Under the pieces are notes generated by a model. That model did no database searches. It was not told where the DNA came from and saw only the letters and a list, made by a program, of their open reading frames with translations. Position numbers and translations under genes: made by a program. From Candidatus Giovannonibacteria bacterium (GTDB taxonomy: Bacteria > Patescibacteriota > Minisyncoccia > JACPKW01 > UBA11713), in the NCBI GenBank assembly GCA_016186825.1, contig JACPKW010000004.1, forward strand, positions 130,237 to 194,236: a DNA stretch of 64,000 bases, in the 5' to 3' direction. Each line of letters starts with the position of its first letter. Position 1 is the stretch's first letter. Below, in pieces: positions 8,800-33,200 of this stretch.

Positions 8800-11700
8800 A
8801 TGAAAAAATATTTTCTCCCAGTCCTCTTGCTTTCTCTAATGCTCAATGCAACGGGAATGCAGTCAGCAAAAGCCGCGAGCTTGGAAAATTCCGATATTTC
8901 GGAATCACTTTTCGAATTGAATACGGTTCTTGAGTCGATTAAGGAAACGTTAAATAATTTTGCCGCACCTTCTGCCGAAGGCGAGGGATCTGTCCTAGGC
9001 GCGAGCACTGTCTATACATCGCAAAAAGCGACGAGCGCTTTCAGATTGGGGTATAACAATAATTATTCCTATTTAGTTCAGACATTCAGAGTTAATGCTG
9101 ATTCGAATCTTTCTTCCGTTTCTCTCGCACTCGCTCGCCGTGGCCTACCTACGGCGCCGATTCAATTAATTATCTCGGAACCTTACCGTTTAGGCGAAGT
9201 TGTGAATCAAACATTTTTACCTCAAGACTTGCCGACAACTTATCTAAAACCTAAATGGGTGGATGTCTCAATTGAAAAACCTGCTTTACTGAAAGCCGGA
9301 AAAGAATATCTGCTTTGGCTCAAATATAGCGATTACAATCTAAGAGGGAACAATCCGAATTATTACTTTTGGTCAGTTAATACTTCGAATCCTTATAAAG
9401 ACGGATCGATACTTACTCCGTTCAAGAGTTATCCTAAATATGATTTTCTCGCCGGATTTAATTTTTCAGGCGCACAGCCAATAGCAGTTACTTCTCCGAG
9501 TGGCGGAGAAAAATGGCTTGGAAGTCCGAAAACTACTGATACTTTAAGCGGGAATGAAATATACACTCAATACATAAAATGGACTGGCGCTCCTGATGAT
9601 TTTAGATCTATTTATGAAGGCAGAGTAAAAGCGTTTCTCGAAAAATACGAAAACGGCAAATTTATAACTGTTGGAAGAATTCCGCCTTTCGCGGCAGGCT
9701 CTATCGCATGGGTTGTCGGAGTTGTAAGCAAAGAGAATTGCGCCGAAATAAATGGAGTGGATGCAGATGGATGCTTTAATAGCGAAAATATCTTTGTTGC
9801 TCCGTCGGGAAGATATTATGTTCGCATTATAGATACAGAAACCAATATCTGGAGCAGGAGTAATGAGTTTAGCATTGTCGGAGAGACTTCCGAGGCTGTA
9901 AAAATTACTTCTGGAATTCAGCCACAAGCAACGCTTGCTCCAAGAAATTCCGTTGTTCCCTTCACAGTGATAAAAGTATCAACCTCGAAAGAAGTCAGCT
10001 TGGGAGAAATGACGGTTGAACGAACCGGACTTTCTTCCGACGGAGGCTTCAAGGAAATTGTTCTAATTGCAAATTCTGGCGTTGATAAAAACAATATCAA
10101 TAGAATTATCGCGGCAGGAACTATTGATCCCGTAACGCACCGCGCGCGTTTGCTTCCGATAAATGCGCCCAAAATCAATGGTGAAGCTCAATTCACAGTT
10201 GCGGGAGTTATGAATGACAACTTGTCGAAATATGCCGGAGAAGTGGCATACCTTTCAGTTACAGGTGCGACGTTTAGCTCGGGTGCAGTGGAATCAATTT
10301 ATTTTCCGATTACCGGAACCGCGCAAACGTTAAATGACTCGTTAACGATAGGCAGTGCGAAGATAACTTCTGATACCACGCCGTGGGTTTTATCGGCATC
10401 AAGCGTAGAGGAGCTGCTTTTAACCAAGGCAATCATAAAATTTGCGGGCGATTCAATAACTGTGGGCGGAGCTAAATATGCTTGCGAACCTTTCAGTTAC
10501 AATCTAACCATTTCAGCCTGCAATTTTGGAAACGGCATAATAATCAGCAAGGGAACTGGCGTAGCGATAACTCCGGCTTCGTCTGATGCAAGACTGCTTG
10601 CGATGAGGGAGTTTGAAATGTCCGGCAAAACATATGGATACAGAATAATTCCGGGTCAAGTTTTCGCAGGAACGGGCTCTGCCTTAGCAGTCCGCCCTTC
10701 AAAATTATTTTCTGCGCAAAATGTTATCTCCGGCGCAATGAATGCTAAACTTGGGAGCTTTGATTTGGACGCTTCGAATTCAACAGGCGAAGTTAAAATA
10801 AACACGGTAAAAGTTAGACTAACTACATCCTCAAATCTGAATCCGAATCAACTCAATAGCCTGCAATTATACGACGGAGATACTCCGATAGTTTGGGGAA
10901 GCAATACGGTTAATCCGGCAGGCACGCAAGATTCAGATGATATTTTTCTTACTTTCAACTTAAATCAGCCGCTTTCGATTAAGGCCGGAACGACTAAAAC
11001 AATTGATGTTCGCGGGAATGTCGGAACCGGAACGCAGAACGGTGACAATTTGCGTTTTGACTTCGAAAATATAGCTGACGGCGATTGGAATGTCATTGAC
11101 GCCGCGAGCGGGAACGAGATTGTTGAGGATCTTGATACGGCTACTTTCGGTTCCATAATCACTATCGTAACTTCGGGAAAAGTTTCAGAACAAATTGATT
11201 TGACAAGCCCTGTCTCAAAAAATATTCCGGCAGGTTCTGCAAGTGTTGAAGTTTTGAGGTTGCGCCTGAGCGCTTTGGATGAAGACGTAAAAATTACTAA
11301 TTTGAATGTGGCAATTGATTCGCCGGGTGATTTTTCTGCAGTCAGCTTATACGATGGCTCCGTTTTGGTTGGGCAAAAAACTTTCCCGTCGTCGAATTTG
11401 GTTCAAATCTATCTTTCTGAACCCTTTGTTGTCCCATCAAATAACTCCAAGGTCATATCAGTTCGAGTTGATGTATTGCCACAAGCGGGAGTCGGGCATA
11501 TTTTCTCGGTGTGGACGACGACGGATCCGGGTAAAGGCGTAGGACTTGTAAGCGGTAATGAAATTAAGATTTCATTAACCGGAAATGTGACAAGCGGGTC
11601 ACAGATGAAAATCGCTTCTGCAGGAGGAGAACTAAGTGGCGGAGGCGGGGGAGGTCCGGTAAATACAACCGATCTCGTTTCCAACTGGAAATTTGACGGA

Positions 11701-12381
11701 GGTACGGGCGATTCGGCGGGCACAAACAACGGTACGCTTATGAATGGGGCAAAAATCATTGATGACGGGAAAGTTGGGAAAGCTGTCTTTTTTGACGGGT
11801 CAGACGACCACGTATCAATCCCGAACGCGGCGTCTCTGATGCTCGACAAATACACGATCTCTTTCTGGTTCAGGCCGGTTGGGAACATAAATGAGTATGA
11901 TTCTTACTCTCATGTTTTTCTAGGAAAAGGCTCGAACAACACGCTCGGAACCGCTAACCGCGATGGACGCTTTGAAATTCGCGGACCTTTGCCGCGAGCA
12001 TATTCTTCATCAGCTAACTGGATTTCCGGAACATGGTATTTCGCGACGCTTTCTTTTGACGGAAGCTTACACCGCTTATATATAAACGGGAAAGAAGAGG
12101 GAAGCGCGGCAGGAAGCTATTCTTTGCTCGCAAATGACAATAAATTGACAATCGGAGGCGATCCGCAGCTTTTCTCCTGGTTTAACGGCGCGATCGATGA
12201 AGTAAAAATACATAACCGCGCGCTTTCTGCGGCAGAAATTTCCGCGCTTTATATGAGCAGCGCAGCTACTGCTTTGGAAAACAAATCTTCAACGGGAAGC
12301 AATCAGGTAGCGAGTTTGATAAGCGGCCTTGAAAAAGTTACTTCCTCGATTCTCGGATTTATAAAAAACCTTTCGCGATAA
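8800..12381 (+). CDS. large secreted protein (1193 aa) with classical signal peptide and C-terminal LamG (concanavalin-A-like) domain
   Basis: Signal peptide MKKYFLPVLLLSLMLNATGMQSAKA. The C-terminal LVSNWKFDGGTGDSAGTNNGT...GAIDEVKIHNRALSAAEISALY matches Laminin_G_3-type jelly rolls. Confidence 0.8.
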   Translation: MKKYFLPVLLLSLMLNATGMQSAKAASLENSDISESLFELNTVLESIKETLNNFAAPSAEGEGSVLGASTVYTSQKATSAFRLGYNNNYSYLVQTFRVNADSNLSSVSLALARRGLPTAPIQLIISEPYRLGEVVNQTFLPQDLPTTYLKPKWVDVSIEKPALLKAGKEYLLWLKYSDYNLRGNNPNYYFWSVNTSNPYKDGSILTPFKSYPKYDFLAGFNFSGAQPIAVTSPSGGEKWLGSPKTTDTLSGNEIYTQYIKWTGAPDDFRSIYEGRVKAFLEKYENGKFITVGRIPPFAAGSIAWVVGVVSKENCAEINGVDADGCFNSENIFVAPSGRYYVRIIDTETNIWSRSNEFSIVGETSEAVKITSGIQPQATLAPRNSVVPFTVIKVSTSKEVSLGEMTVERTGLSSDGGFKEIVLIANSGVDKNNINRIIAAGTIDPVTHRARLLPINAPKINGEAQFTVAGVMNDNLSKYAGEVAYLSVTGATFSSGAVESIYFPITGTAQTLNDSLTIGSAKITSDTTPWVLSASSVEELLLTKAIIKFAGDSITVGGAKYACEPFSYNLTISACNFGNGIIISKGTGVAITPASSDARLLAMREFEMSGKTYGYRIIPGQVFAGTGSALAVRPSKLFSAQNVISGAMNAKLGSFDLDASNSTGEVKINTVKVRLTTSSNLNPNQLNSLQLYDGDTPIVWGSNTVNPAGTQDSDDIFLTFNLNQPLSIKAGTTKTIDVRGNVGTGTQNGDNLRFDFENIADGDWNVIDAASGNEIVEDLDTATFGSIITIVTSGKVSEQIDLTSPVSKNIPAGSASVEVLRLRLSALDEDVKITNLNVAIDSPGDFSAVSLYDGSVLVGQKTFPSSNLVQIYLSEPFVVPSNNSKVISVRVDVLPQAGVGHIFSVWTTTDPGKGVGLVSGNEIKISLTGNVTSGSQMKIASAGGELSGGGGGGPVNTTDLVSNWKFDGGTGDSAGTNNGTLMNGAKIIDDGKVGKAVFFDGSDDHVSIPNAASLMLDKYTISFWFRPVGNINEYDSYSHVFLGKGSNNTLGTANRDGRFEIRGPLPRAYSSSANWISGTWYFATLSFDGSLHRLYINGKEEGSAAGSYSLLANDNKLTIGGDPQLFSWFNGAIDEVKIHNRALSAAEISALYMSSAATALENKSSTGSNQVASLISGLEKVTSSILGFIKNLSR

Positions 12382-12386: not shown

Positions 12387-12881
12387 ATGGAAGATTTGAG
12401 CGGCCAAAAAGTTTTGTTAAAAGACATTATGACAAAAAAAGTTGTTGCAGTCAGTCCGGAAACTTCGCTTATTGAAGCCGCTCGAATTCTTTCTGAAAAG
12501 AAATTTTCAGGAATGCCAGTTATTGATAAAAAAAACAAACTTGTTGGGATTCTCACCGAATACGATCTGATCAGCAAAGAAGATTTATTGCACCTCCCGA
12601 CTTTTCAGAAAATTCTTGAGAATCTCGCGGTTTACCGCAAAAATCGCCATGAAATTTCTGCAGAGATAAAACAAGTCTCGCGCTTGAAAGTGAAAGATGT
12701 GATGAATGACGATCCTTTGACTCTTCAAGAAAATGCGACGCTTGAAAGCACAGTTAGGACATTCAAAGATCATCATCGCGTAAATCCCATTCCGGTCCTT
12801 GATCAAAACAAAAAAGTGGTCGGAGTTATCAGCCGTTTTGATTTAATAAAACCTCTTTATGCGAAGACTATCCGCGCGTAG
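12387..12881 (+). CDS. CBS-domain pair protein
   Basis: Two CBS repeats: IMTKKVVAVSPETSLIEAARIL ... GMPVID and VMNDDPLTLQENATLESTVRTF ... IPVLD. Confidence 0.8.
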   Translation: MEDLSGQKVLLKDIMTKKVVAVSPETSLIEAARILSEKKFSGMPVIDKKNKLVGILTEYDLISKEDLLHLPTFQKILENLAVYRKNRHEISAEIKQVSRLKVKDVMNDDPLTLQENATLESTVRTFKDHHRVNPIPVLDQNKKVVGVISRFDLIKPLYAKTIRA

Positions 12882-15800
12882 CAGGACTAAAGCGAAAAGT
12901 TCGGATCTCATTGTCGCCGATGCCTTTCAGGCACTTCAAGAAGAATATGTTGTAATCGGAAAGGACCGCGTTCGTTCGTGGGATGCTTGGCTTACGTTAG
13001 GATTCATTGTCGGAATCTCTGCAACTCTAATTTTTGTATCGAATAGGGGAGGGGAATTTGAGAAATCGAGCGCTTTCGAGGACTGGTTCCCGGAGGATAT
13101 GAACTTTTATGATATGAGCGATATCAATACTTCTTGGCTCGCAACGCAGCCAATAGTTCAAAGTGGAAATTATTTCTATCAGGATATTGCAAACAGCTTT
13201 AATTACGACGAAGTTGGATCGAATGATTTTTTTGACAGTCTTCGTGATACGATTACTGATTTTAGTTTAGACGTGAATTTAGAACAATATGTCAGAAATC
13301 TTCAAGACGAAGAATTTGAAAGTTTTCAAGATGATGCCGAGAATTATTTGAAATTTTTTGGAGTGTCAGAGAAGGAAATAGATGTAATTAATAATGAATT
13401 TTATTTCATTTCTCCCGAAGCGAGGGCGAAATTTGAATCGGAATTAAGCATTACTGATGATCCTAATGGCGATTTATTAATAGCAATGAATAATGCGCGC
13501 GCGGAAGAACTCGCTCGAGAATTTGACTTGTTATACGGTTCTGCCCAAAAAAGAATTTCCAAATTTTTTCCTAATATCGCGATTGGGTTCGATGATTCGA
13601 TACATAATGTTAGGAAAGAAGCTTTTTTTGACGCGCTTGAATATATTTTGGTCAAATCCGGAGATGTAATGATGCAGAATGCGGATTTAAAAATTTTAGT
13701 TGTTGGAGAGCAGGAATATCTCGACATCCTAAAAATCGGGCGGAATAGTTTGGCTGGTTTGCCAGATGGGTTGACTGTTGTCAATGCTGTTGATGCATCG
13801 AAAAAAGTTTTTGGTAGTGAGTATAAGTACGGCATGATAATCTGCACGGATTGTTTAGATATGAAAGGTGAAGCTTTCGGGGAAGATTCTTTTTCGCACA
13901 TACTTGCCCACGAGCTAAAACATGTATCTGATTTCGAGAGAAAAGGTGTTTTTCTTGATTCAGATGATAGAAAATTATTTGAAGAGTGTAAGTTGTTAGG
14001 TGGGGGCTGTTTTGCGACCGCTTACGCATCTTCTAAGGAGACTGAAATGGGTCCAGAAAATTTTGCGTGCGAAATTGTTGGCGCTCCATTTTGCACGAAA
14101 ATGGAAAATATTAGCGGATCCTTGCCTGTATTGCAAAATTTTTCTAAGCAGTATGAAAAATTAATCCGCGACGGAGCATTGAACGTTTCTGCTGGAGGCG
14201 ACGATGTTATTTTAAATAATGATTTTGGCGTCAGTCCTTTTAACCTTGCAGTTACCGATGGCGAAAATTTCAAGTCATTGCTTTCCGCAATAGACAGAAA
14301 GTTAACCACGGTTGCAGGCAACAATGCGAACTTATCTTTAAGCGAGACAGTTGAAATGACTAGAAATTTAGCTGGCGCTGCTGCAGACGTGGCGGAAATT
14401 GCTCACCTTGACGCTAGAGTTTCTATTGCGCGAAAAGATGAAGCTGACGAAAAAGCGGAGGAGTCTCTTGCTATTATTTCTGAGCTTGATTCTTACGCTC
14501 CCGTTCTTGCGTCGGGCAAGCGCGTGCTAGACGCGATCAGAAACGGGAGCATATCTGCTTATGAGATCTCGGAAATACTTTTGAAGGCCTCGATCGGAAG
14601 CAGCAAGTTGAAGTCTTTACAGCCAACAAAGACTAAAGTAAATATAACATCTCAGCCTAGTAAAAAATATTTGTCGTTTGAAACATTATTGTCCAAAGGA
14701 ATGGAAGTGATAGCAAACGAACTCACTGCTACAGTTTTGACTAAGCAAGACAAAGATCTTATTAGCGCGTTGGCTGCTACGAGAGTTAAAGCGCTTGAAG
14801 AAGCGGGGACGGTCGGAGATAAAGGGATGATTAATGCGAAAAAAGCGCTCGATCTCGCAAATCCAAAGACAGTAGATCCTTTGATGGAGCAAGCCAATGA
14901 CGCCTTAAACGCTGCGAGAGGTGCGGCGCATGCGAAAGGCACGGTCGCGGCGAATGAAGCATTCGTCCGCGCGCAGAGTGAATACAATAACGCGCTGCGC
15001 GCTTCAAATACCTTAAAATCCACCGTTGGCGGAAGCATTCGTGAAAGCGTCGGGTTTTATTCAAGAAGTAATGTTTTGCCTGCCGCGATTACAAAAGTTA
15101 AAAGCTACACTTCTTCAAAATCACCGCTCAAAAAAGCTTTGAGCGATTTTGCTTCGAAAGTCGAGGCCGCCCAAAAAGCGGAAATGGAGAAATTATCTGC
15201 CGCAAACGAGATGCTTGCATCCGCGAGAGGCGAGATAGAAAACGCTAAAGCGCGCGGAACATTTGGCAGCACAGCCGAGGCGCAGCTGAAAACGGGCGCT
15301 GAAAAAATCCAGCGCGCGCTAAATCATCTGGCCGGCAAAGCTCCCGCAAAACAGTATGCAAAAGAGCCCGCCTACTTAAAAACTGTCGCTTTCAAAAAGG
15401 CGATCAAAGCTTTGAACACTTCGAAAAAGAATGTCGATGCTAATCTAAAAAAAATTAAGTATCCCGAAAAGAAAATTGACCTGGTGCAGGATGTCAGGGA
15501 TTACGCTTACATTATTAAAAATGAGCTCGCGGATGCTGAAAGAGAAACTCAAAATCTGAAAAACGCGATTCAAAATATAAAAGCTATCACCAATGGAATT
15601 AATACGGGCCAGGCGGCCGGAACTCTGCCATCGGACGAATCTGTTTCAAATAACACAAATACGCAGTCTAACGTAATTATACAAAACAAGATAACGACGG
15701 AAATTACTTCTTTTACAGTGGACAAAGACAGGATTAATTCTGGCGAGGTCGCAACATTCATCATTTCCGGAGCTGATAATTCCCAGCTTGCATTTGCTCT

Positions 15801-16683
15801 TTCCTGCCCTGAGGGAGTCTCTGCTAAATCTGCTTCAAATTCTGAAATCTGCAACACGGCGGTTACTCTTCCTATCGGAACAAAACAATATTCTCTTATA
15901 TTTACGAATCCACATAATTCAGAAGCCGGAATTGCGGCGGTTCTTAAAATTACGGATGCGAGCGTTTCTATAACTTTGACGAGAACGCTGAAAGTAATTG
16001 CTACGCAAAGCGCTTCAGCTTCGATAATCTGTTCGGCTGTAAACGGGCTTCTCGCCCAATTTAAATTCGACGCAAACTCTGCTGCAGATTCTTCCTGCAG
16101 TAACAATAATGGGCAAGTTATCGGAGGTTCCTTCGCGGACGGGAAAACTAATTTTGGGAAAGCCTTGATCTTGAATGGTTCGGGCCAATACGTAAATATT
16201 CCGGACTCTTCTTTGCTCGACGCCTCGCAAATAACTATTTCTGCTTGGATTAAAACAACTGCAACAGCGGGAACAATCGCAGACCGCTTTCTATTAATAA
16301 ACAACAAAGGCTACGGCTGGAGACTGGGCTTGCAGGAAATTAGTGATAAACCCGGCAAAGCGACAATTTTTGGAACTATCTATATAAATGGAGATAACCA
16401 CAACCCTTGGCCGTATGGGCAAGGGCCGGTTATTAATGACGGAAACTGGCATCACGTTGCAATGACTTCAAACGGCTCTCAAGGAACTTGGTATGTTGAC
16501 GGCATTTTCACTACAAATCAAGGCAACCCTTTCGGAACTGGAAATATAAACGATGTAAACGCGCCTTTAACAATCGGAAAAGGTGAGACCGGATTTTTCA
16601 ACGGCTTGATTGATGATGTCCGCCTTTATAACCGCGCGCTTTCGTGGGGTGAGATTAATAATTTATTTCGCGAATCACAATAA
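12859..16683 (+). CDS. giant membrane-anchored surface protein (1274 aa): conserved N-terminal anchor module, HExxH region, Ala/Lys-rich helical stalk, C-terminal LamG domain
   Basis: N-terminus EEYVVIGKDRVRSWDAWLTLGFIVGISATLIFVSNRGGEFE is shared with the next three genes. HELKH occurs at ~aa 350. The C-terminus LLAQFKFDANSAADSS...GLIDDVRLYNRALSWGEINNLF is LamG-like. Confidence 0.8.
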   Translation: MRRLSARSRTKAKSSDLIVADAFQALQEEYVVIGKDRVRSWDAWLTLGFIVGISATLIFVSNRGGEFEKSSAFEDWFPEDMNFYDMSDINTSWLATQPIVQSGNYFYQDIANSFNYDEVGSNDFFDSLRDTITDFSLDVNLEQYVRNLQDEEFESFQDDAENYLKFFGVSEKEIDVINNEFYFISPEARAKFESELSITDDPNGDLLIAMNNARAEELAREFDLLYGSAQKRISKFFPNIAIGFDDSIHNVRKEAFFDALEYILVKSGDVMMQNADLKILVVGEQEYLDILKIGRNSLAGLPDGLTVVNAVDASKKVFGSEYKYGMIICTDCLDMKGEAFGEDSFSHILAHELKHVSDFERKGVFLDSDDRKLFEECKLLGGGCFATAYASSKETEMGPENFACEIVGAPFCTKMENISGSLPVLQNFSKQYEKLIRDGALNVSAGGDDVILNNDFGVSPFNLAVTDGENFKSLLSAIDRKLTTVAGNNANLSLSETVEMTRNLAGAAADVAEIAHLDARVSIARKDEADEKAEESLAIISELDSYAPVLASGKRVLDAIRNGSISAYEISEILLKASIGSSKLKSLQPTKTKVNITSQPSKKYLSFETLLSKGMEVIANELTATVLTKQDKDLISALAATRVKALEEAGTVGDKGMINAKKALDLANPKTVDPLMEQANDALNAARGAAHAKGTVAANEAFVRAQSEYNNALRASNTLKSTVGGSIRESVGFYSRSNVLPAAITKVKSYTSSKSPLKKALSDFASKVEAAQKAEMEKLSAANEMLASARGEIENAKARGTFGSTAEAQLKTGAEKIQRALNHLAGKAPAKQYAKEPAYLKTVAFKKAIKALNTSKKNVDANLKKIKYPEKKIDLVQDVRDYAYIIKNELADAERETQNLKNAIQNIKAITNGINTGQAAGTLPSDESVSNNTNTQSNVIIQNKITTEITSFTVDKDRINSGEVATFIISGADNSQLAFALSCPEGVSAKSASNSEICNTAVTLPIGTKQYSLIFTNPHNSEAGIAAVLKITDASVSITLTRTLKVIATQSASASIICSAVNGLLAQFKFDANSAADSSCSNNNGQVIGGSFADGKTNFGKALILNGSGQYVNIPDSSLLDASQITISAWIKTTATAGTIADRFLLINNKGYGWRLGLQEISDKPGKATIFGTIYINGDNHNPWPYGQGPVINDGNWHHVAMTSNGSQGTWYVDGIFTTNQGNPFGTGNINDVNAPLTIGKGETGFFNGLIDDVRLYNRALSWGEINNLFRESQ

Positions 16684-16692
16684 TTTAAAAAA

Positions 16693-19530: not shown

Positions 19531-19563
19531 TTATTTATAAGATGTTTTAATTTTTTAAGGACA

Positions 19564-21441
19564 ATGAAAAAAGGAAAAAATAGTTCGGAGTTAGTATCAA
19601 GAACGTTTAAAAAGCTTCAGAGAGATTATCTCGTTATCGGAAAAGAACGGGTGCACTCATGGGATGCCTGGCTTGCCATCGGTTTTATTGCGGGAGTTTT
19701 AGCGGCCGTTATTGTAATTTCAAACCGGAGCGGAGAATTTGATACTTCAGTTGCGGCGATCGAAGAATCGGCGGCAGTGTCAAGCTATTTCCCCGGGCGG
19801 ATTTTGGTGAAGTTCAAAGAAGGTGTCTCGGACGCCGAACAGGGGAGGCTTTTGAAAAGCTGGGGTCTCGCTAAGAAAAGTGAAGTTAAACAAATAAAAG
19901 TTAAAATCCTGAATGTTCCAGAGGGGGCAGAAGAAGTTTTAGTCCAAGCGCTTTTACACAATCCAAAAGTTGAGTATGCAGAACTTGATGGGATTCTTAA
20001 GCCGGAGCTTGTGCCAAACGACCCGTATTACTCAAGCGAGTGGCACCTTTCGAAAATCGGTTCTGAATCAGCATGGGATGTGACGCAGGGGCAGGCCTCT
20101 GTAGTCATTGCAATTTTGGATAGCGGAGTAGACGGAGGTCATCCGGATCTTTTGTCTAAGTTGGTTGCCGGTTACAACTTTTACAGCAATAACACGGATA
20201 CTTTCGATGTTTATGGTCACGGGACTAAAGTAGCGGGTGTCGCCGCCGCGGTCAGCAATAATGGTTTAGGCGTTGCGTCGCCAGCTTGGATAAATAAAAT
20301 AATGCCCATCAGGGTGTCGGATGCTTCTGGTTATGCATATTATTCAACAATTTCAAGTGGCATAACTTGGGCTGCAGATAACGGTGCAAAAGTAATGAAT
20401 GTGAGTTTCGGGGGTGTTGCGGGGAGTTATTCCATTACAAATGCGGCCAATTACGCAAAAAGCAAGGGGGCGCTTGTGGTAGCGGCGGCTGGAAATTGCA
20501 GCTGTTTTGACGGGACGCCGGAGAATACTTCAATGATTTCCGTTTCAGCAACAGACTGGAGCGATGCCTCAGCATATTGGTCAAGTGTTGGAAATTATGT
20601 GGATGTTTCTGCGCCCGGCACAGCAATATATACAACTACAGCAGGGGGAGGATATGAAGCTCCTTATGGAACTTCGTTTTCGAGCCCGCTTACGGCCGGC
20701 GTTATTGCATTAATGTTTTCAGCGAATGCTGATTTGACTCCCGCTGACGCGGAAGCAATTTTAGAATCAACCGCGCTTGATTTGGGATCATCCGGTTATG
20801 ATTCCTCATTCGGCTGGGGCAGGATAAATGCCGCTGCTGCAGTAGCAAGTGCCGCGAATAATGCTCCGCCGCCCGATATTTCAGCTCCGACAACCTACAT
20901 AACATCGCCCGCAGACGGCTCAACTGTTTCCGGAACAGTTTCTGTAACAATTTCTGCTTCTGACAACAATGCTGTTTTGAAAGTTGAGCTCTGGAAAGAC
21001 GGAACACTTTTTGCATCAGACACGTCATCTCCCTATTCTTTTTCGTGGAATACCTTTAATGAAGTCAACGGGTTGCATACTTTACAATCTCTGGCATACG
21101 ACGGCGCCGGCAATGTCGGGTATTCCGGGTTAGTGAATGTAAATGTAGATAATGTTGCTGACAGCATCGCTCCAAGCGTATCTATAAATTCGCCTCTCGA
21201 AAATTCTAAATTGCCATCCAGAGGAAACGTAAATATTTCTGTTTCCGCTAGCGATAGTGTCGGTGTTACGCAAATTGATATTCTCTTCGACGGGGTTTTG
21301 AGGAAGTCCTGCTATGACATAAATTCCTGTTTTTACAAATTAAATACAAATAAAATTTCTGCCGGAGCGCATACAATTTTGGCTAGGGCTTACGATCAAG
21401 CGGAAAATACCGGCTCGGCAGAAGTTAATGTAACCAAATAG
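19564..21441 (+). CDS. membrane-anchored subtilisin-like (S8) serine protease with I9-like propeptide and two C-terminal Ig-like domains
   Basis: RDYLVIGKERVHSWDAWLAIGFIAG anchor. Catalytic Asp in AILDSGVD, His in YGHGTKVAG, Ser in GTSFSSPLTAG. Ig-like repeats are homologous to those in 16693..19530. Confidence 0.85.
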   Translation: MKKGKNSSELVSRTFKKLQRDYLVIGKERVHSWDAWLAIGFIAGVLAAVIVISNRSGEFDTSVAAIEESAAVSSYFPGRILVKFKEGVSDAEQGRLLKSWGLAKKSEVKQIKVKILNVPEGAEEVLVQALLHNPKVEYAELDGILKPELVPNDPYYSSEWHLSKIGSESAWDVTQGQASVVIAILDSGVDGGHPDLLSKLVAGYNFYSNNTDTFDVYGHGTKVAGVAAAVSNNGLGVASPAWINKIMPIRVSDASGYAYYSTISSGITWAADNGAKVMNVSFGGVAGSYSITNAANYAKSKGALVVAAAGNCSCFDGTPENTSMISVSATDWSDASAYWSSVGNYVDVSAPGTAIYTTTAGGGYEAPYGTSFSSPLTAGVIALMFSANADLTPADAEAILESTALDLGSSGYDSSFGWGRINAAAAVASAANNAPPPDISAPTTYITSPADGSTVSGTVSVTISASDNNAVLKVELWKDGTLFASDTSSPYSFSWNTFNEVNGLHTLQSLAYDGAGNVGYSGLVNVNVDNVADSIAPSVSINSPLENSKLPSRGNVNISVSASDSVGVTQIDILFDGVLRKSCYDINSCFYKLNTNKISAGAHTILARAYDQAENTGSAEVNVTK

Positions 21442-24400: not shown

Positions 24401-27400
24401 TATATTGACTTCAGTTCCCTCGAATGTACCTGCCGTGCCTGATGGATTTATATTTGTTGACGGTTGGGAAAGGTATAGTTCTAGACCGACTACAAAAGTT
24501 TATTATACAACCTCAACAGGGATGAAAATTTGGGATGATACGGGCAGGTTGCCTTATCCAGTTGATTTCGACGTAGTTCTTTCGCTCTTTTTTAATCCCA
24601 CAACAAAAAAACTTTATTATTATGGCGGAAGCGATGCAGAATTGGGAGTTTATTCATTAGATCTTTCTCTTGCCAATCCGCGCTGGGCAAAGCTTTCAGC
24701 TACAGTTCGCGGAGGTGGATCGCTACCCTTTCCCAGTCGGGAAGTTACATACATTCCAAAATACAATGTTTTTTTAATGCTTGAAGGCTGGTCTGATTAT
24801 AATGACACGCGCCCTCCTCAAGTTTGGGTTTTTGATCCAAATATTAACGAGTGGTCAAAAATGAATATGTCCTATGGATCAGGAGTTATAGTTGGGCAAT
24901 ATCCTGGAAATCTAAATCCGATGGGAATTTCTAGCGGACTTGCATATGATAATATCAACGACCTCGCATTTTACATAACCGGAACTGGGCAAGGAGGCAC
25001 TCCCTCGCTTTTTACATTTCGGTACGCTCCTTCCGATTTAACAGCGCCGAGCGCGCCAACAAATCTTTCGGCAACTCCCGCTTCCGATACTCAAATAAAT
25101 TTGGCATGGAGCGCATCATCGGATTCTGAATCGGGAATTTTGAAATATAATGTTTTTCGCAATGGCACGCTTGTTGCGAGCCCAAACACAAATTCATATT
25201 CCGACACCGGGCTTATCGGCGGAACTTCATACACATACCAAGTTTCCGCAGTCAACGGAGTTTTGCTTGAGTCTGCAAAAAGCGCTTCTGTATCGCAATC
25301 TACTTTTACGGATATTTCCCCTCCAACCATTGTTTCGGCCGCAGCTTCCGATTCTAGTTCCGTTTCTGTTATTTTCAGCGAACCTGTTGAACAAATAAGC
25401 GCGACACAAATTTCAAATTATGGAATTAGTAACGGCATAACGATTTCTTCTGCTTCGCTTGGCGCTGACCTAAAAACTGTTACTCTATCGGTCTCTTCTT
25501 TAACAGCGGGTACAAGTTACGTTTTAACGGTCAGCAACGTAAAAGACCGCGCTTCTCTTCCGAATACAATTTTGGCTAATTCGCAAACAAGTTTTACGTT
25601 TACATCTGGACTCGTAGCGCATTGGAAATTTGATGAAGGAGCGGGTTTTGTAGCCAGCGACTCATCAGGAAGCAACAACACTGGTAACATCAGCGCGGCA
25701 ACTTGGACTTCCGGAAAAATAGGGCAAGCCTTAAGCTTTGACGGATCAAGCAGTTACGTTGACTTTGGAAATCCATCCTCACTAAAAATTACCGGAAGCC
25801 AGACAATCTCAATATGGCTTTACCCTACCGACTTTTCACAAAGGAGAAATCCAATTTCGAAAGCTTATGGCGGCGAAGGAACCATTACAGTTGAAACGGA
25901 CGGAACTGTTAATTATTTCTACGGCACCTGCGGTGGGGATTGCACCCCTTATCAAGGGTTTACAATGACAAGCGCTCTTACGGCAAATAGTTGGACGAAC
26001 TTAGTTCTTGTCCGCGATTTAAGCGCGATGAAACTACGATGGTACAAAAACAGTGTTTTAATTAACGAGTCAACCGCAAATTACTCAAGTGCCGTAGCTT
26101 CAGCAAGTTCATTGCTTGTTGGCAAAGGTTACGTTTATAATTTCGCAGGAAATATTGATGATATAAGAATTTATAATCGCGCTTTAAGCATCGCAGAAGT
26201 GCAAAGTATTTATACAAGCGTGCCTGCGCCGGTGCCTGATACCATAGCGCCTTCGGTTCCAGCTGGTCTTACAGCAACTGCGATTTCGTCTTCCCAAATA
26301 AATCTTTCGTGGGCCGCTTCCACGGATAATGTTGCGGTAACAGGTTACAAAATTTACAGGGGAGGAGTACAAATTGCAACTTCAAACACAACTTCGTATT
26401 CAAATATTGGGCTTACTGCTTCTACATTATATTCCTACACTGTTGCAGCCTATGATGCGGCTGGGAATACTTCTGGACAGTCGGGGAGTGCGAGCGCTAC
26501 AACATTAGCCGTGGGACAAGTTGATATTACATCGGGGCTAGTTGGACATTGGAAGCTGGATGAAACTTCCGGAATATCCGCAGCGGATTCTTCAGGAAAT
26601 AGTAATAATGGCACCATTTCAAATGGTCCTCTTTGGGCATCTGGAAAAATAAATGGGGCACTAAAAATGGATGGTGTTGATGATTATGTTACAGTTTCAA
26701 ACTCGGCAAATTTAAATCCCGCAGTAATTACTTTATCAGCGTGGATTAATCCTGCGACAATCGCGCAAGAACAGAAGCCAATTATTTTAAAATCTTACAC
26801 TTCGCATGTCTCGCCTTACTATCAGTATTATTTGTTTTGGTATAATACTGCTACTTACCCGAATACTATTGCATTTGGCATAAACGTTAACGGTTCTTTG
26901 GCTGGCGCCGCTAAATCCAATGCTTTTACTCCGCCGGGATGGCATTTGGTAACAGGGACTTTTGACGGAAGCGCCTCAAAACTTTACGTCGATGGCGTTG
27001 AAGCAAGTTCGGCTAATGTTTCAGGATCTTTGACTAGTTACCCAACAGAATTACATTTCGGTCGATATAGAAATATTGCTACCGATTCAATTCATAATTT
27101 CGCGGGTTCAATTGATGATATTAGAATTTATAATCGAGCGTTAACAGCGGCCGACGTTCAGGCGCTCTATGCTACAGCTCCTCCGCCCGCATACACGTTC
27201 TCACTTTCAAACGGCGGAACAAAAAGCATAGTTCAAGGTTCGTTTATTTCAAATTCAATCACGGCAACTCTTTCTTCGGGAATTGGACAACCAATAACAT
27301 TTTCGGCTTCTGGTCTTCCGCAAGGCGCAAGCCATAGTTTTAGTTCAACAAGTTGCACGCCGACATGCGCGACAAATCTAACTATCAGCACGACGGCAAC

Positions 27401-30400
27401 GACTCCGCCCGGAACTTACAATATTGTTGTCTCCGGAACAGGTTTGGAAGGCACAAAATCAACTTCGTTTTCGCTTAATGTGTCAACCGCTCCCACAGAT
27501 CCTTCAACTGCGCCGCCTTTACCTGCGGGAAGCATTCAGGTGCCGCTTACGGTGAAAGAAGCATTGCCCGCAGGAATTTCCGGAATGTCTAGAACCTCTG
27601 AATTAGTTTCTGTCGGTATTCCGCTTCCTGAAAATAGCGGAGCAATCAGCACTTCGCAACTCGGACTTTCCGGAACAACTGCCGGACAATTTAGAACTCT
27701 CGCCAAATGGCCAAACGGGAACATTAAATGGGTGCTTGCGGATTTTCTGGCGAGCGTTTCGGCCGGAGGAACAACGAACGTCAGTTTAACGACTGGAGCA
27801 GGAAATTTTGGAGGAACGAATTTAGCCGCGGATAATGGCAATACGATAAATATAAATACCGGACCGGCACAATTTGTAATTAAAAAATCAAATTTCAATG
27901 TTTTCGACAGCGTGATAATCAATGGGCAAACTCTGGTAAACACAGGAAACAACGGTAAGTTGGTTATGCGCGATTCTTCAGATAACGAATATAATTCCTC
28001 AAATGATCCGTTCTCTGCGGCAGTCATTGAAGAAAATGGTCCAGTGAAAACAGTAATAAAAGCAGCAGGATCATTCAAAGATTTAAACGGAACGCGGCTT
28101 GCCGGATATACTTTGCGGATGACTTTTTACAAAGGCGATGCTTCCGTTAAAACCTTGTTTGCAATTACGAATTCGGACGTTGCAAGTCGAGCCCACACTA
28201 ATTTTAACAGCGTAGAAGCTGTTGTTCCGATAAACATTGGCGTTACTAAAATAGCTGAATACGCAACGAAAGTTGGAAGCACATCTGGAAATATCTCATC
28301 TGGAGAAACATCTTACCTATTTCAAGGGTACAGTCTTGATAAATTGGATGCCAGCGGACGAGATTGCTTTAACTGGAAACCACCTGTGCCCGGAACGTGC
28401 GATTCGAATTTTACATATCAATACGATCAGTCTAAGGCTGGTCTTGAAATAAAAATAGGTCAGAATACTGCCAATGTTTTGGGAAATCAAAGTGATTGGA
28501 CCGGAGGATGGGGCGAGTTGCGCGACTCATCCGGAAAAGGAGTGAGCATGGCTTACCGCTGGATGTCTTCCTACTGGCCGTCGGGTTTTGAAATGAAAGG
28601 CGATGGCAGTACTTCTATTGAAATATTTTCCAAACGGAACACAAAAAAGGGGCTGACTCTCGTTTTTGGGAAGCATGAAGCGAGAGAAATAATCTGGGAT
28701 TTCCATTCTGCGGCAGGAAATAATCAAAAGACCCTCTATAAATTGCAGTATCCGCTAATCGCCCAAGCGCCATTTTCACATTACCAAAATACTAAGGCCA
28801 TTTTTGGACAGGACGAATTTGTAACTCCCGCAGAGCAAACTAAATTTTTTACGGACATGGGAAAATCGACATGGGCGCCTAATCTTGGCAATCTTTCCAT
28901 GTATCGTATTTATCGGTCGATCGGTTGGGGGACTGGAGGCGGAGGCAATCAAACAGATTTTCCGTTAAATGACTTGCAAGACTTTTTAAGAACAGGAAAC
29001 CCGGGATTTTATCTTTTGGGCGAGCAAAGAACGTTGTTCAACAATACAGCATTTGTAAGAACTGACAACGGTGGAGTTCCATCTGGATTTGATCCAGAAC
29101 CAAGCTGGTCTTCTAGTATTAATGGCAGTTTCATTGACATGGAACACGCACATGTTTTATCCACTCCTTTTTATTACTTACTAACGGGAAATGAATGGAT
29201 AAAGGAAGGCTTTTTGGATTATGGAGATTATCTAGAGTACACCGAAACAGGATGGAAATATTATGCGATGCCAACAAATCCTTGGAATCGTTCTTGGGAT
29301 AGAAAATTACGCAACATGGCGCTTCTGTACGAATTTTCATGCCAGACTGGAAACTGCAACACAAAATATCGCGATTATCTTACAAACTGGATGGATTATT
29401 ATTTAAGTTCTCGCGATAACCCTTCCAACAAGTACGTACATGGGCGAAACATTGAGCGTGGATATCGGTATTGGGCCTATCCTTGGGCTGAAGATATCGG
29501 TTTGCGTCCAGTACAAGCTTTAACAGATGTCCAGATTCACTTTGAAGCGATGTATCAAGCACTTCGTGTGATGGAAGACACGGCTGTAACTTATTTGCGT
29601 CAAGAAGAATTGGAAGATTATTTGACTGGACTTTCGCAGTTTATATTCAACGAATATTATGACGAGATAAATGGCGGTGATGCTCTCGAGGAATTCGGAT
29701 TTATGTATGGATATCCATTAGACAGCGCCTCAACTATAAATGGCGGCAATTACTGGCTGACACTTGCTCCCTACGACGCATCTCGACCCGCTTTTTGGGG
29801 TTATCAAAAAACCGGAGATGCCTCGATGCTTACTAAAGCAAATAAGTTAATATGGGCAATTACAGAATATGCCACAGGCCGCAGTCCGTCGGAACTTCAG
29901 GATCAGGCTTTGATGTACACTCATTTCAACCCTCCCGCAACATGGAAACCGCTTTCTGTTTCAGCCGCAAACAACGGGGGCGGTTCATACACGCTTTCTT
30001 GGAATGTTCCCGCAGGCACAACGAAGTATCAAATTAAATATTCACCCAAACCGATTGTTGAATGGCTTGGATTCAATAAAGTTACGAGAACATATCAATA
30101 CGATCCTGCCCAATATACCGCTTTCTTTGCCGCGACAAATATTTCAAACGAGCCTGCGCCGCTTTCTAGCGGAACTCAAACATTCACACTCTCCGGCCTT
30201 TCCTGCGGATCTAATTGTTACTTTGCAGCGAAATATTATGACGGAGAAGTGGGATCTGTTACACCGCCTCCATCTGATACTCAAGCGCCTACAATCCCGA
30301 CAAATCTATCTGCTACCGCAATTTCTTCTTCCCAAATTAATCTTTCTTGGACCGCCTCCACCGATGCAGTTGGCGTAACTGGATACAAAATATATAGAAG

Positions 30401-33200
30401 CGGAGTTCAAATCGCAACTTCAAACACAACTTCATATTCTGACACTGGGCTTGCTCCGTCGACCGCATATTCATATACAGTTTCGGCATTCGATGCGGCT
30501 GGCAACAACTCTTCGCAATCAACAAGCGCAAGTGCAACAACGCAACCGGCGTCTGTTCCCGTAGATACCACCGCTCCTGTTATTTCAGGAATATCATCTT
30601 CTGGAATTACATCTTCTTCTGCAAATATTTTGTGGAACACAAACGAGATGTCTACGCACCAAGTCGAATACGGGCCAACTGCTTCCTATGGACAGTTAAC
30701 CACAGAAAATACGGCAATGATGACTTCTCACTCCGAAACAATTTCGAATCTTCAGTCTGGCTCAACATACAACTTCCGCGTAAAGTCCAAAGATGCCGCA
30801 GGAAATCTTGCAATCTCCTTAAATTCGAGCTTCAAGACTTTGAATGCTCCGGATAACATTCCACCAAATGCGATAAGCAATCTTTCGTCATCCGAGATCC
30901 AAACAAATTCTCTCAAGCTTTCTTGGACTTCGCCCGCAGATCCGCCTTCGAATTCAGCCGCGGACAAATATGATATCCGATACTCTATGAGCTTGCTTGG
31001 CGAATCAAATTGGCAGCAGGCTACCAGAGTTACCGGAGAGCCCGCGCCAGCCTCGCCCGGAGCCAATCAATCATATATTTTGGCTGGGCTCGCTCCACAG
31101 ACTACATATTATATTGCAATCAAATCTTCGGATGCGAAAAATAACGATTCGGCGCTCTCAAATGTATTACAAATTACAACTTTAGCTTCCGAACCTCCGC
31201 CCGCTATTCTTTCAGTGTCGCCGATTACTGCAAACATCCAGGACGTAAATTCTACTTTGCCGGGCGTCCAGTTCTACGAAGGAATGACGGTCAGATATTC
31301 TTCTTCTGCTTCGGGGCATGCGTCTTGGGAGTGGCTGTATTCGGTCAACAACGGAACACCAATTTCGTATCTTAAGGGCACAGGCAATGTGGAAGATGCC
31401 ATGTTCAAATATCCTTCAGGCAGTGCGGGAACTTCATACAAATGGATTTTCAGAGCTTCAAGTGGGACACAAATTAAAGAAGAGGCTCTCGATGTTTCGA
31501 TTATTTCTAGGCAGACTGGGACAAATCCAGCAGTTATTTCAAATATCGCTTTCGATATCGGACAAACTAGCGCAACTGTTACTTGGGAAACCGATATTCC
31601 TGCCTCCACTCAATTGGAATTCGGCGCACATAATCTTCTCGGCTCCCTGTCGCCTGAACTAAATTCGACCTCTTTGGTAACCGCGCACTCTGTGACTTCT
31701 TCAAATCTTATTCCTTGCGCCCGTTATTACTTCCGCGTCCGTTCGCGCGATTCTTCCAATAACATTTCCGCTGGCGCTCCATATTCATATTCTACCAAAG
31801 GCTGTCTTGGCGGGGCTGATGTTGCATCAAGCACAGAAAAACTTATCCGGCGCGCCGAAGGCGGAACGATCAAGCAGAAAGATAAGGGCTCTGGTTTGAC
31901 GATCACTGCTCCGATAAATTTTGCCTCCGATGATGCGGTATTCCAAATTCAAAAGCTTTCTAATAAAGTTTTCAGCACCGCGCAACTTCCTCAAAACAAA
32001 AAATTAATCGGCGATCACATATATGAATTGAAAGCTCTCTCGGATTCTTCTGTGGCAATTTCAGCTTTTGCTGATTCGCTCACGCTCACAGTCAAATATA
32101 ATTCTGCTGATCTGGGGAATATTAATCCTTCTACACTCCGGCTTTACCGCTGGGTATCTTCAAGTAACTCCTGGCAGGTTCTGTCGTGCACTGAAAGCAC
32201 TGCAGATGCTCAAGTGATCTGTTTGACAAATTCATTTTCATCATATGCTTTGCTCGGCGATGAAACGCAAACAACTGGAGGCGGGGGATCTTCGGGTGGC
32301 GGAACTTCAAGCGGGGGAGGAGGTATTATTATGCAAAGCGTTTCTGCTCCAGCCTCCTTCAAAGCTATCGGCGCCCCGAACCAGATTATTCTTTCCTGGT
32401 CTAATCCTAAAGATGCAAATTTTGTCCGCGCGCGCATTATTAAAAACCAAAACAGGGTTCCTCTTTCCGCAAATGACGGGGAAATAATATATGAAGGCGC
32501 AAAAGAAGAATTTATTGATACGAACGTAACTCTCAATGCCGTTTATAATTATGGCGTCTATGCGCTAGATCGGAATTTAAATGCCTCTGCGCTTTCGACA
32601 CTTATCGTTAAGGCTGGCGAAAAGAGCGAAGCAGACGCCCTTAAAGCTTTGAGCCAAATTGTTTCTGCCTCGAAAGTGACTGCACCAGTGACTTCCCCTG
32701 GGGCGTTATTAACTGGTCCTTTTGCTTTCGGTATTCGAAGCGAACAAGTAAAAATTCTTCAGGAATGGCTCGCGCGCGACAAATTGATCTATCCAGAGGC
32801 AAAAATCACTGGCTATTACGGCCCCGCAACATTTGCCGCAGTCAAACGCTTTCAGAAGAAATATGGAATTGCCCAAATTGGAATCGCAGGCCCCAAGACC
32901 AGAATGAAATTGAACGCACTTTATAATTCATCAGTAGTGTCCACACCTGAAGCGCCAAGTTCGAGCGAGACAATTATACTTCTCCGCGGTCCATTTTACC
33001 TCGGTGCCAGAGGTAATGAAGTTAAAGTGCTCCAGCAGCTGCTCGCGAAAGATAATGCCATTTATCCGGAAGGACGCGTAACTGGATATTACGGAGCACT
33101 TACATTTCAAGCTGTGAAAAGATTTCAGGCTAAATATGGAATTTTACAAACAGGAATCGCAGGGCCTAAAACCAGGGCTAAACTAAACGAGATATATTAA
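21459..33200 (+). CDS. giant surface protein (3913 aa): divergent N-terminal anchor module, 3 LamG domains, at least 5 fibronectin-III repeats, Kelch-like propeller region, unassigned ~800-aa central region, Gly-rich linker, two C-terminal peptidoglycan-binding (PG_binding_1-like) domains
   Basis: [24 protein letters not shown] anchor. LamG domains recognised by HWKFDEG...[10 protein letters not shown], three times. FN3 repeats [26 protein letters not shown]...AAYDAAGN. Tandem C-terminal LxGPFxxGxRxxxVKxLQxxLA...YGPATFxAVKRFQxKYGI repeats. Confidence 0.85.
   Translation: [3913 protein letters not shown]
22369..22640 (+). repeat. intragenic FN3-encoding DNA repeat, copy 1 of 4 (~270 bp, high identity)
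   Basis: Near-identical nucleotide blocks (ccggatactac...gcaacgacgcag) recur at 22663, 26235 and 30274. Confidence 0.7.
22663..22937 (+). repeat. intragenic FN3-encoding DNA repeat, copy 2
   Basis: Same block as copy 1, translated [44 protein letters not shown]. Confidence 0.7.
26235..26507 (+). repeat. intragenic FN3-encoding DNA repeat, copy 3
   Basis: Translated [57 protein letters not shown]. Confidence 0.7.
30274..30548 (+). repeat. intragenic FN3-encoding DNA repeat, copy 4
   Basis: Translated [60 protein letters not shown]. Confidence 0.7.

Follow-up and report, generated by a model that had tools for sequence, protein, structure and literature searches.

How bacteria belonging to the Candidate Phyla Radiation (CPR; also called Patescibacteria) attach to their partners and feed on them is a central open question, most lineages of the group, including Giovannonibacteria, being uncultivated. 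Large surface proteins of lectin or adhesin type are thought to mediate attachment in CPR bacteria (PMC8080830; PMC12911398). Ten giant membrane proteins, proposed to make up its fibrous surface, are known in Vampirococcus lugosii (PMC8080830), and proteins with concanavalin/LamG-type lectin domains have been noted as typical of Patescibacteria (PMC12911398). Here, we focus on a gene cluster at positions 8800 to 33200 of a 64,000-nt stretch of DNA (hereafter, the window), in which five large genes (g1 to g5) and a small gene coding for a stand-alone CBS pair lie in tandem, and in which four of the large proteins share an N-terminal leader, degenerate in one of them. The g2 protein is identical to NCBI HYW53_02045 from Candidatus Giovannonibacteria bacterium (CPR/Patescibacteria). 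The giant CPR surface proteins described so far resemble those of the cluster in being very large (1.4–4.2 kaa) and multi-domain, in belonging to ultra-small, reduced bacteria, in their inferred membrane localisation, and in carrying adhesion domains (fibronectin, integrin-like, lectin) with a proposed role in attachment (PMC8080830, PMC12911398). Those reports, however, describe no common N-terminal leader, no tandem arrays and no linked CBS gene. The domain sets also differ, with WD40, PKD and saposin domains in the Vampirococcus-type proteins, but LamG, S8, beta-helix and peptidoglycan (PG)-binding domains in the window cluster, as does the lineage (Absconditabacteria for Vampirococcus, Giovannonibacteria/Parcubacteria for the cluster).

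A second comparison is offered by the giant proteins predicted in Omnitrophota, which have been implicated in the degradation of cell walls and include S8 and C39 peptidases (bioRxiv 10.1101/2023.11.21.568195). They too are very long exported proteins of candidate predatory or episymbiotic bacteria, combining peptidase, carbohydrate-binding and attachment modules. However, they are an order of magnitude longer, are encoded by single genes and not by arrays, come from another phylum, have other N-terminal features, and have no reported linkage to CBS genes. CPR bacteria being known to have giant adhesive surface proteins, there is nothing unusual in the cluster as such; what is new is the leader family and the CBS-linked, fast-evolving arrays.

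The five large open reading frames (ORFs) follow one another head-to-tail on the + strand, namely, g1 (8800–12381, 1193 aa), g2 (12859–16683, 1274 aa), g3 (16693–19530, 945 aa), g4 (19564–21441, 625 aa) and g5 (21459–33200, 3913 aa). A first-pass annotation of the window, made from its letters alone, had given exactly these sizes and this order, as well as the extent of the five-gene span (24,401 bp, 38% of the window), but it had also described the genes as consecutive, which has to be amended. The CBS-pair gene (12387–12881, +, 164 aa) lies between g1 and g2, starting 5 nt past g1 and overlapping the start of g2 by 23 nt. From g1 through the CBS gene to g5, the gaps thus amount to 5, -23, 9, 33 and 17 nt. 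In addition, a terminator-like hairpin (AAAAAGCCCGAGAAGC...GCTTTCGGGCTGTTTTT, 8463–8510, +) can be read after the upstream SLT/PcsB-like gene and would mark the 5' boundary of the transcription unit. Owing to the short gaps and to this upstream hairpin, the six genes look like one operon.

Specialised N-terminal signals, such as YSIRK-G/S, KxYKxGKxW (accessory Sec) and the ESPR of autotransporters, mark subsets of large surface proteins. The leader of g2, g3 and g4 resembles them in that many otherwise unrelated large surface proteins carry a conserved sequence that extends a hydrophobic Sec-type signal or forms part of it; a signal of this type implies a dedicated route, timing or site of export. 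It differs from all three in having no detectable sequence relationship with them, in its greater length (~65 aa) and its glycine-zipper core of transmembrane (TM) length, in its acidic extracytoplasmic motif, in its confinement to CPR bacteria in these searches, and in its linkage to a CBS pair. Leader-only queries against Pfam and NCBIfam returned noise only at E<=10, and the leader therefore does not match the YSIRK, KxYKxGKxW, ESPR, TAT and prepilin N_methyl families; as a positive control, the N_methyl and GFxxxE models matched the unrelated pilin gene at 2741–3406. A limited search of the full-text literature found no description of the leader either, so that it is taken to be undescribed on the strength of Pfam (2025), NCBIfam (June 2026) and that limited search.

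In the window, the leader occupies residues 13–75 of g2 (12895–13083, +), 6–66 of g3 (16708–16890, +) and 5–66 of g4 (19576–19761, +). The three copies are ~50% identical, and the remainder of the proteins is unrelated. A degenerate version, or signal anchor, is found at residues 1–62 of g5 (21459–21644, +), the ortholog of which in locus L006 bears a canonical leader at its N-terminus, and the leader is absent elsewhere in the window. It consists, in order, of a predicted cytoplasmic amphipathic helix, a basic GKTRVRSW(H/D)AW motif, a TM helix of 21 residues with a GxxxGxxxG pattern, an NRSGEFE motif and a small-x-Ala boundary, with the consensus ...LVxRALxxLxK[DE][FY]VVVGKTRVRSWHAWLxIGLAAGIxAGILFVANRSGEFEx[S/G]xA. 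The N-terminal segment is strongly amphipathic when read as a helix. Because K/R residues precede the TM helix, the N-terminus is predicted to lie inside and the passenger outside.

A word-indexed homolog search with the 76-aa g3 leader yielded no candidates, but an exhaustive HMMER search of 1.84 billion cluster representatives with a profile built from the four leaders (g2 to g5) succeeded, with 342 representatives at E<=1e-3 and 111 at E<=1e-10. The matches are always located at residues ~1–80, in proteins 52 to 1386 aa long. Both Trp are near-invariant (114/114 for W(+4) and 113/114), and the positions of the Gly zipper are kept in 114/114, 113/114 and 88/114 sequences. Ala(+35) is present in 97/107, with S or G at position -3 to it, and conservation collapses past this Ala. 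The passengers are of extracytoplasmic types (S8, LamG, Big_7, beta-helix, FG-GAP, dockerin, sulfatase, CBM9 and PA14), S8 recurring in 7 of the 72 longer leader proteins; among these 72, no Pfam family common to the N-terminus was found. Leader peptides are held at 40–60% identity on passengers that are unrelated. Gene conversion among the leader copies was considered and rejected, as the leader DNA differs at many synonymous sites, and such differences between paralogs point to selection on the peptide. That the leader came from viruses or is carried by phages was likewise rejected, a scan of IMG/VR having given no confirmed match.

When one genome per GTDB species was scanned with a leader pattern, 12 loci were retrieved, all of them in CPR metagenome-assembled genomes (MAGs), mostly of Giovannonibacteria, but also of Parcubacteria, Ryanbacteria and some labelled Saccharibacteria or 'bacterium'. 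The pattern, built on seven sequences, is strict, and this taxonomic range is therefore a lower bound. The leader family is CPR-restricted in these searches, defines at least 342 protein clusters, and is apparently undescribed.

With regard to its function, the leader shows the n/h/c features of a signal peptide, but its h-region, of 21 residues, has TM length, and its c-region, of 11 residues, is long and charged. The small-x-Ala boundary corresponds to the -3/-1 signature of signal peptidase. Further evidence comes from g1, which has no leader. Its residues 1–25 form a classical Sec signal peptide (MKKYFLPVLLLSLMLNATGMQSAKA, followed by AS), and by inspection it has the MKK, FLPVLLLSLML and ...AKA-A elements of a Sec-type (signal peptidase I) signal. 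In the g1 ortholog of locus L005, the leader replaces the Sec signal peptide, the first domain is 48% identical, and in both proteins the homologous domain starts shortly past the predicted cleavage or anchor boundary. This swap on an orthologous passenger supports an export-signal function of the leader. Together with the small-x-Ala boundary, it would argue for cleavage, whereas a glycine-zipper core as long as a TM helix and the conserved charged motif next to the membrane would argue for retention. The surface anchoring assumed in the first-pass annotation hinges on this choice. No LPxTG-type sorting signal is present at any C-terminus of the cluster, the sole loose match being an internal LPQAG in g1.

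The second new feature concerns the small gene between g1 and g2. Its product is a CBS pair (Bateman module), with PF00571 matching at 112.9 bits over two stretches. Among NCBIfam models only generic CBS ones matched, the best specific ones, CbpB among them, remaining far below their cut-offs. CBS1 and CBS2 are joined by an unusually long linker (~35 aa), which ranks with the best-conserved segments of the protein (HLPTFQKIL..., with an invariant H-L-P-T-x-Q...L); this suggests a functional surface specific to this CBS orthogroup.

Orthologs of the CBS protein in relatives are 48–63% identical and adjoin leader-gene arrays. In the scan of 12 loci selected by the leader, leader genes were often in tandem, two or three in a row, and a CBS ortholog (48–61% identical) stood directly beside the array in 6 of the 12. 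For the reverse test, metagenome contigs were selected by the CBS gene alone, giving 45 loci after de-duplication with at least 400 bp on both sides. A leader gene was located within 400 bp and on the same strand in 30 of these 45 loci, downstream of the CBS gene in 23 and upstream in 7, and many of the pairs have 4-nt overlaps or gaps. For the closer CBS orthologs, the proportion rises to 25/30. In comparison, an adjacency of at most ~7% is expected from the enriched local density of leader genes (0.87 per 10 kb). When leader proteins were sampled regardless of CBS, a CBS gene was adjacent or headed the same array in four cases out of five, the fifth being at a contig end.

The wider context of these pairs is variable. 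The commonest one is tkt-CBS-[0–3 leader genes]-pfkB-FBA-...-L25-SLT-prfB, but the pair also occurs in a DnaK/DnaJ-PsbP_2 context (P0016) and between type IV pilus (T4P) genes and DsbA/VKOR (P0019). In the window, tkt has pfkB as its neighbour, and the CBS gene lies with the array ~6 kb away, between SLT and prfB. As the CBS gene lies away from tkt/pfkB together with the array, it has travelled with it. CBS plus leader array is thus encountered in at least four wider chromosomal contexts. Regardless of these, there is a strong genomic association of leader arrays with one CBS-pair orthogroup. We found no description in the literature of a ligand-sensing module linked to surface-protein genes.

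The content of the arrays varies even more. In locus L005, the array comprises the g1-like LamG protein with leader, an S8 ortholog (71% identical to g4) and a protein of 2103 aa in which fn3, beta-helix, Big_7 and four LamG domains are fused. The arrays of loci L010, L008 and L100 are composed differently, F5/8-type-C and Reprolysin-like heads being among their modules. Of the array members, S8 is conserved best, with 71% identity compared with roughly 30–48% for the others. Judging from these comparisons of sequence, the array of the window is one instance of a recurrent, fast-evolving cassette beside a conserved stand-alone CBS-pair gene. Since the arrays beside the CBS gene vary in number and content between close relatives, they are candidate determinants of partner specificity.

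We therefore favour, as a fairly probable reading, a single operon of variable exported or surface proteins that are targeted by the leader, bind and cut polymers at the cell surface, and form a CBS-linked cassette. The proteins g2 to g5 would be targeted to and through the membrane by the lineage-specific leader of ~65 residues, and g1 by its ordinary Sec signal peptide. Lectin-type modules (LamG, the carbohydrate-binding module (CBM)-like sandwich described below, and the Kelch-like propeller) would be displayed outside, with fn3, Big_7 and the helical stalk as spacers. The degradative heads would be the S8 protease, the PF12708 beta-helix glycanase/lyase and possibly a PcRGLX-like module, and g5 would contribute its C-terminal peptidoglycan-binding pair. 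Together, these modules may attach to polymers at the surface and cleave them, be they polysaccharide, protein or cell wall, the most plausible targets being the envelope of a partner cell or detrital polymers. The leader would give access to a specialised export, sorting or retention step, and the CBS protein would be functionally coupled to the leader proteins, for example by sensing a ligand in the cytoplasm as a partner of the conserved leader helix, or by regulating the array. We infer the surface action, the retention at the surface or release, the substrates, the role of the CBS protein, the cleavage at small-x-Ala, and the targeting of host or prey; such targeting, which the first-pass annotation had proposed, is plausible for a CPR bacterium and fits the literature on giant CPR surface proteins. 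Taken in this way, the leader is a simple and highly specific tag, carried by at least 342 protein clusters, for an exported, fast-evolving surface repertoire; it points to a specialised export or sorting step, and the CBS pairing links a ligand-sensing module to surface-protein genes.

A more specific version can be put forward only tentatively. In this version, the leader would be the recognition tag of a dedicated, hitherto unrecognised sorting route in CPR bacteria of Parcubacteria type, the CBS protein would bind the leader helix and gate or chaperone export on binding its ligand (candidates are an adenine nucleotide, S-adenosylmethionine or c-di-AMP), and the NRSGEFE-x-S-x-A segment would direct processing or attachment. 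If true, N-terminal sorting signals would gain a new class, one with a sensor partner in the cytoplasm, and the leader would be a sequence handle predicting the entire surface proteome of these uncultivated organisms.

Several observations weigh against the favoured reading of a leader-targeted, CBS-linked surface operon. Proteins with quite diverse specificities contain PF12708 and LamG modules, so that a substrate is not assignable, and the head of g2 and large parts of g1 and g5 are without an assignable fold. The long charged c-region of the leader is atypical for signal peptidase I, and its h-region has the length of a TM segment. About one third of the CBS orthologs have no detectable leader neighbour (e.g. 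in L040 and L078), leader genes occur without a nearby CBS gene in L012, L013 and L102, and the two genes could be neighbours on account of a hot spot permissive to insertion, or of a common promoter, rather than because their proteins interact. Furthermore, the taxon labels of the relatives come from MAG records, and the pattern scan is biased to close relatives.

These exceptions to the pairing bring us to the rival that survives best, a possible but rather doubtful one, which holds the CBS adjacency to be incidental. The CBS protein would be a housekeeping nucleotide-sensing regulator that sits beside a tolerated hot spot or donates a promoter, and the leader would be an ordinary signal anchor conserved by descent. 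Apart from the unpaired CBS and leader genes, the commonest arrangement, in which zero to three leader genes stand between tkt-CBS and pfkB, is in its favour, as is the exclusive match of the CBS protein to generic CBS models. However, this rival does not sit well with the adjacency on either side of the CBS gene, with 4-nt overlaps, nor with its recurrence in at least four unrelated contexts (tkt/pfkB, DnaK-PsbP_2, T4P-DsbA/VKOR and SLT-prfB). The displacement of the CBS gene along with the array in the window genome, and the 40–60% identity of leader peptides despite their unrelated passengers, also speak for the linked cassette.

A nutrient-scavenging secretome is a viable rival, but appears unlikely. 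According to this view, the leader is nothing more than a Sec signal peptide that is long and cleavable, the proteins leave the cell or are loosely bound to the wall via g5, without a specific host or prey target, and environmental proteins and polysaccharides are digested for an auxotrophic cell. The -3/-1 small-x-Ala signature at the point where leader conservation ends, the interchange of leader and Sec signal peptide on orthologous passengers, and the lack of LPxTG at the C-termini of the cluster are all consistent with it, as are the S8, beta-helix glycanase/lyase and PcRGLX-like modules in the cluster and the sulfatase, CBM9 and dockerin passengers elsewhere. Yet a plain signal peptide needs no strictly conserved cytoplasmic segment of 30 residues, no glycine zipper and no conserved acidic c-region, and very long fn3/Ig/stalk spacers suit display at a distance better than soluble enzymes. 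The linkage to the CBS gene is also left unexplained.

A coat of the cell's own envelope, of S-layer type, is viable too, but we consider it improbable. The giants would form a fibrous layer, with g5 tied to the cell's own peptidoglycan, and the S8 protease would mature its neighbours, possibly at the leader-proximal motif. In its support, g5 joins an N-terminal TM helix with two C-terminal PG_binding_1 domains, S8 is both the best-conserved array member (71%) and recurrent among leader proteins (7/72), and a gene for an SLT/PcsB-like wall hydrolase lies immediately upstream. The fibrous surface of Vampirococcus is, moreover, thought to be made of giant membrane proteins (PMC8080830). Nevertheless, close relatives have very different array contents, which one would not expect of a core structural layer, many arrays are without an S8 gene, and the lectin and glycanase heads point to outward-directed ligands.

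Finally, an assembly or annotation artefact, that is, a chimeric contig or a giant ORF arising from misassembled repeats, might be suspected from the MAG-derived source and the repeated fn3 and LamG modules of g5, but it is extremely improbable, given four independent single-run assemblies that are 100% identical to the window over all junctions and 8.4 kb of g5, and flanks that are syntenic with related genomes. A chimera had been named by the first-pass annotation as a finding that would overturn it. The Logan assemblies of four separate runs match the window at 100% over 9564–29897, 14248–21767, 15300–21580 and 16604–22390, covering every gene junction, and they contain the exact g4 protein and the same gene order. 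As these independent assemblies are identical across the junctions, a chimera is excluded for 9564–29897. The same annotation had described the genome as AT-rich, a term to be tempered, since a G+C content of 0.39–0.47 makes it only moderately so.

As to the modules themselves, the Pfam searches that the first-pass annotation had proposed as a check back most of its domain calls; the I9 propeptide and the HExxH domain found no match, and the Kelch match is weak. Its statement that all large proteins but the S8 protease carry LamG holds: Laminin_G_3 (PF13385, gathering score 27.6 bits) matches g1 (96.8 bits), g2 (90.3), g3 (82.6) and g5 (195.5, over three stretches), at model positions 1–151, and is lacking in g4.

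In g1 (+), the signal peptide is followed by a putative CBM/lectin-like beta-sandwich (~residues 58–240, 8971–9519, +), assigned by homology to the g3 model discussed below. A beta-rich region without Pfam matches extends up to ~residue 950 and is followed by a poly-Gly linker and by Laminin_G_3 (residues 999–1148, 11794–12243, +). A PDB sequence search with residues 28–960 gave no match. Upstream of g1, an untranslated stretch of ~290 bp (8511–8799) ends in a second hairpin with a T-run (8740–8770), ~30 nt before the g1 start, which might act as an attenuator or correspond to a small RNA. Over 8380–8830, no Rfam family reached threshold, the best being L20_leader at 22.8 bits against 58.7, and a consensus scan for promoters and terminators gave counts equal to the shuffled expectation.

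The g2 protein (+) consists of the leader, an orphan head (residues 75–470, +), an Ala/Lys/Glu-rich, presumably helical stalk of ~480 residues (~470–950), and Laminin_G_3 (residues 1106–1267, 16174–16659, +). An HExxH region had been proposed for the cluster, and the motif does exist, as a single HELKH at residues 351–355 (13909–13923, +), within a Cys-rich segment (ILAHELKHVSDFE) of the head. Because His is rare in these proteins, it is not a trivial chance occurrence, 0.006 such motifs being expected by chance in g2 and 0.025 across the five proteins. A metalloprotease domain around it, however, is not borne out by any family, homolog or PDB relative. Pfam gave neither a metallopeptidase nor any other match to the head at E<=1, a PDB sequence search found no relative, and phmmer against ~1 Mb of related CPR loci returned nothing. 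In an index of 5.8 billion proteins, the full g2 sequence yielded LamG-mediated matches only, and residues 215–470 alone nothing. The PROSITE-type zincin pattern fails at the Lys of HELKH, and a single-sequence AlphaFold2 (AF2) model of the head was unusable (pLDDT 37). Since Pfam, PDB, homologs and structural model provide no support, the identity of the head as a zinc metalloprotease was not adopted.

Altogether, no homolog of residues 75–950 of g2 (~875 aa) was found, whether among the 5.8 billion proteins of the index or in the closest relatives' arrays, and by these sequence comparisons they constitute a true orphan region, inserted with a conserved leader before it and a conserved LamG behind it. 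In locus L100, a leader-bearing array protein (5709–7976) has weak matches of Reprolysin type (zinc metalloprotease) together with Big_7, which indicates that metalloprotease heads do occur in such arrays; the HELKH region of g2 has no similarity to this protein.

In g3 (+), the leader precedes a CBM/lectin-like beta-sandwich (~residues 66–240, AF2 and Foldseek), Big_7 (residues 245–310, 17425–17622, +, Pfam), Laminin_G_3 (residues 399–548, 17887–18336, +, Pfam) and a right-handed beta-helix (18367–19497, +). The post-signal domain of g1 and g3, of ~150 residues, is found again, in the same place, in several related array proteins. Its AF2 model, built from a multiple sequence alignment of six sequences, is confident and all-beta (pLDDT 89.4, pTM 0.84). 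The nearest Foldseek neighbours are baseplate proteins of phage phi812 (TMq 0.65–0.67), followed by PHR domains, CBM36 and the lectin-like domain of Cwp84. It is on account of these closest structural neighbours that the domain is called a CBM/lectin-like sandwich, as the model predicts. The pectate-lyase-3-like beta-helix announced for this protein is well supported, with PF12708 (Pect-lyase_RHGA_epim, the former Pectate_lyase_3) at 47.2 bits for a cut-off of 27 over residues 559–695, and Beta_helix (PF13229) at 48.9–58.6 bits for a cut-off of 25.9 over residues 809–935. The NCBIfam rhamnogalacturonidase models matched this beta-helix far below their cut-offs only.

The g4 protein (+) is an S8 protease, with a fervidolysin-type prodomain (residues 64–141, 19753–19986, +), a catalytic domain (residues 179–419, 20098–20820, +) and two Big_7 domains (residues 442–615, 20887–21408, +, Pfam). 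The Ig-like domains said to be common to g3 and g4 are indeed of the same type, Big_7, and are ~50% identical. The description of g4 as an S8 subtilisin with an I9 propeptide is correct for the first part (PF00082, 146.6 bits), and the predicted catalytic triad is intact and in the expected order, with D186 (DSG), H219 (HGT) and S371 (GTS). No Inhibitor_I9 model matched at E<=0.01; the prodomain belongs to PF22148 (Fervidolysin_NPro-like, 47.8 bits for a cut-off of 21), which has the position of I9 and presumably its role, but is of another family. The exact domain order (PF22148, PF00082, PF17957) and the intact triad are those of subtilases with a fervidolysin-type prodomain and C-terminal Ig-like domains. 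Unlike these, g4 carries the CPR leader instead of a normal signal peptide and sits in an array.

In the giant g5 (+), three Laminin_G_3 domains (residues 120–287, 1428–1582 and 1738–1901; 21816–22319, 25740–26204 and 26670–27161, +) alternate with seven fn3 stretches, in agreement with the FN3 repeats noticed earlier (residues 312–387, 409–483, 1198–1269 and 1600–1675, and several within 2947–3228, 30297–31142, +). Kelch-like blades occupy ~residues 569–1190 (23163–25028, +). Of the Kelch-like propeller proposed for this region, one Kelch_4 blade is retained by a segment scan (25.9 against 21.6 bits), and the propeller models stay below threshold (32–33 against 50). About six blades are readable by eye (g5 ~580–1190), interrupted by a helical insert of ~140 aa. 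A PcRGLX-like beta-sandwich is above threshold in Pfam at residues 2125–2237 (27831–28169, +), and stretches without Pfam matches lie at ~residues 2240–2940 and 3230–3760; a PDB sequence search with residues 1905–2935 gave no match. The tandem peptidoglycan-binding domains noticed earlier were recovered at the C-terminus as two PG_binding_1 domains (95–102 bits for a cut-off of 23), along with a weak PG_binding_3, at residues 3764–3909 (32748–33185, +).

The cluster is flanked by housekeeping genes. On one side are a split transketolase, a PfkB kinase, a type IV pilin, FBA, a 2-hydroxyacid dehydrogenase, CapA, L25 and the SLT/PcsB-like wall hydrolase, and then, on the other, L31, a release factor, S2, EF-Ts, SufS/NifU and ClpB. 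The gene directly upstream of the operon (7019–8386, +) codes for a PcsB-like coiled coil joined to an SLT_2 lytic transglycosylase domain, and hence for a cell-wall hydrolase, and it stays beside L25 in related genomes, whether the array is present or not. The split transketolase (665–1666, +) has the pyrimidine-binding and C-terminal domains only. The transketolase of locus L100 is split as well (989–1849 and 4166–5170), with a separate N-terminal half ~2.3 kb upstream. That locus also contains a HicA/HicB toxin-antitoxin pair (15334–15806) between pfkB and FBA, in an otherwise conserved housekeeping block. The type IV pilin/pseudopilin-like gene (GspG-like, 2741–3406, +) lies between those for the PfkB kinase and class II FBP aldolase, with its N_methyl motif at residues 54–76. 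As the listed ORF has ~50 residues before the prepilin motif, its true start is probably later.

Downstream of g5, the release-factor gene (33221–33958, -) codes for only 245 aa, starts within the PCRF model (positions 101–194) and is missing the whole N-terminal domain 1. An ORF for ribosomal protein L31 is located just upstream of it (~33960–34214, -). A programmed frameshift was considered for the release-factor gene and rejected, as the upstream ORF is L31 and the release factor is simply without domain 1; in the related locus L101, the release factor that comes after L31 is of similar length (235 aa). Further away, two adjacent genes (43064–45430, +) code for trypsin-like proteases of HtrA/DegP type, the second with a PDZ domain, which possibly provide an envelope quality control relevant to the exported giants.

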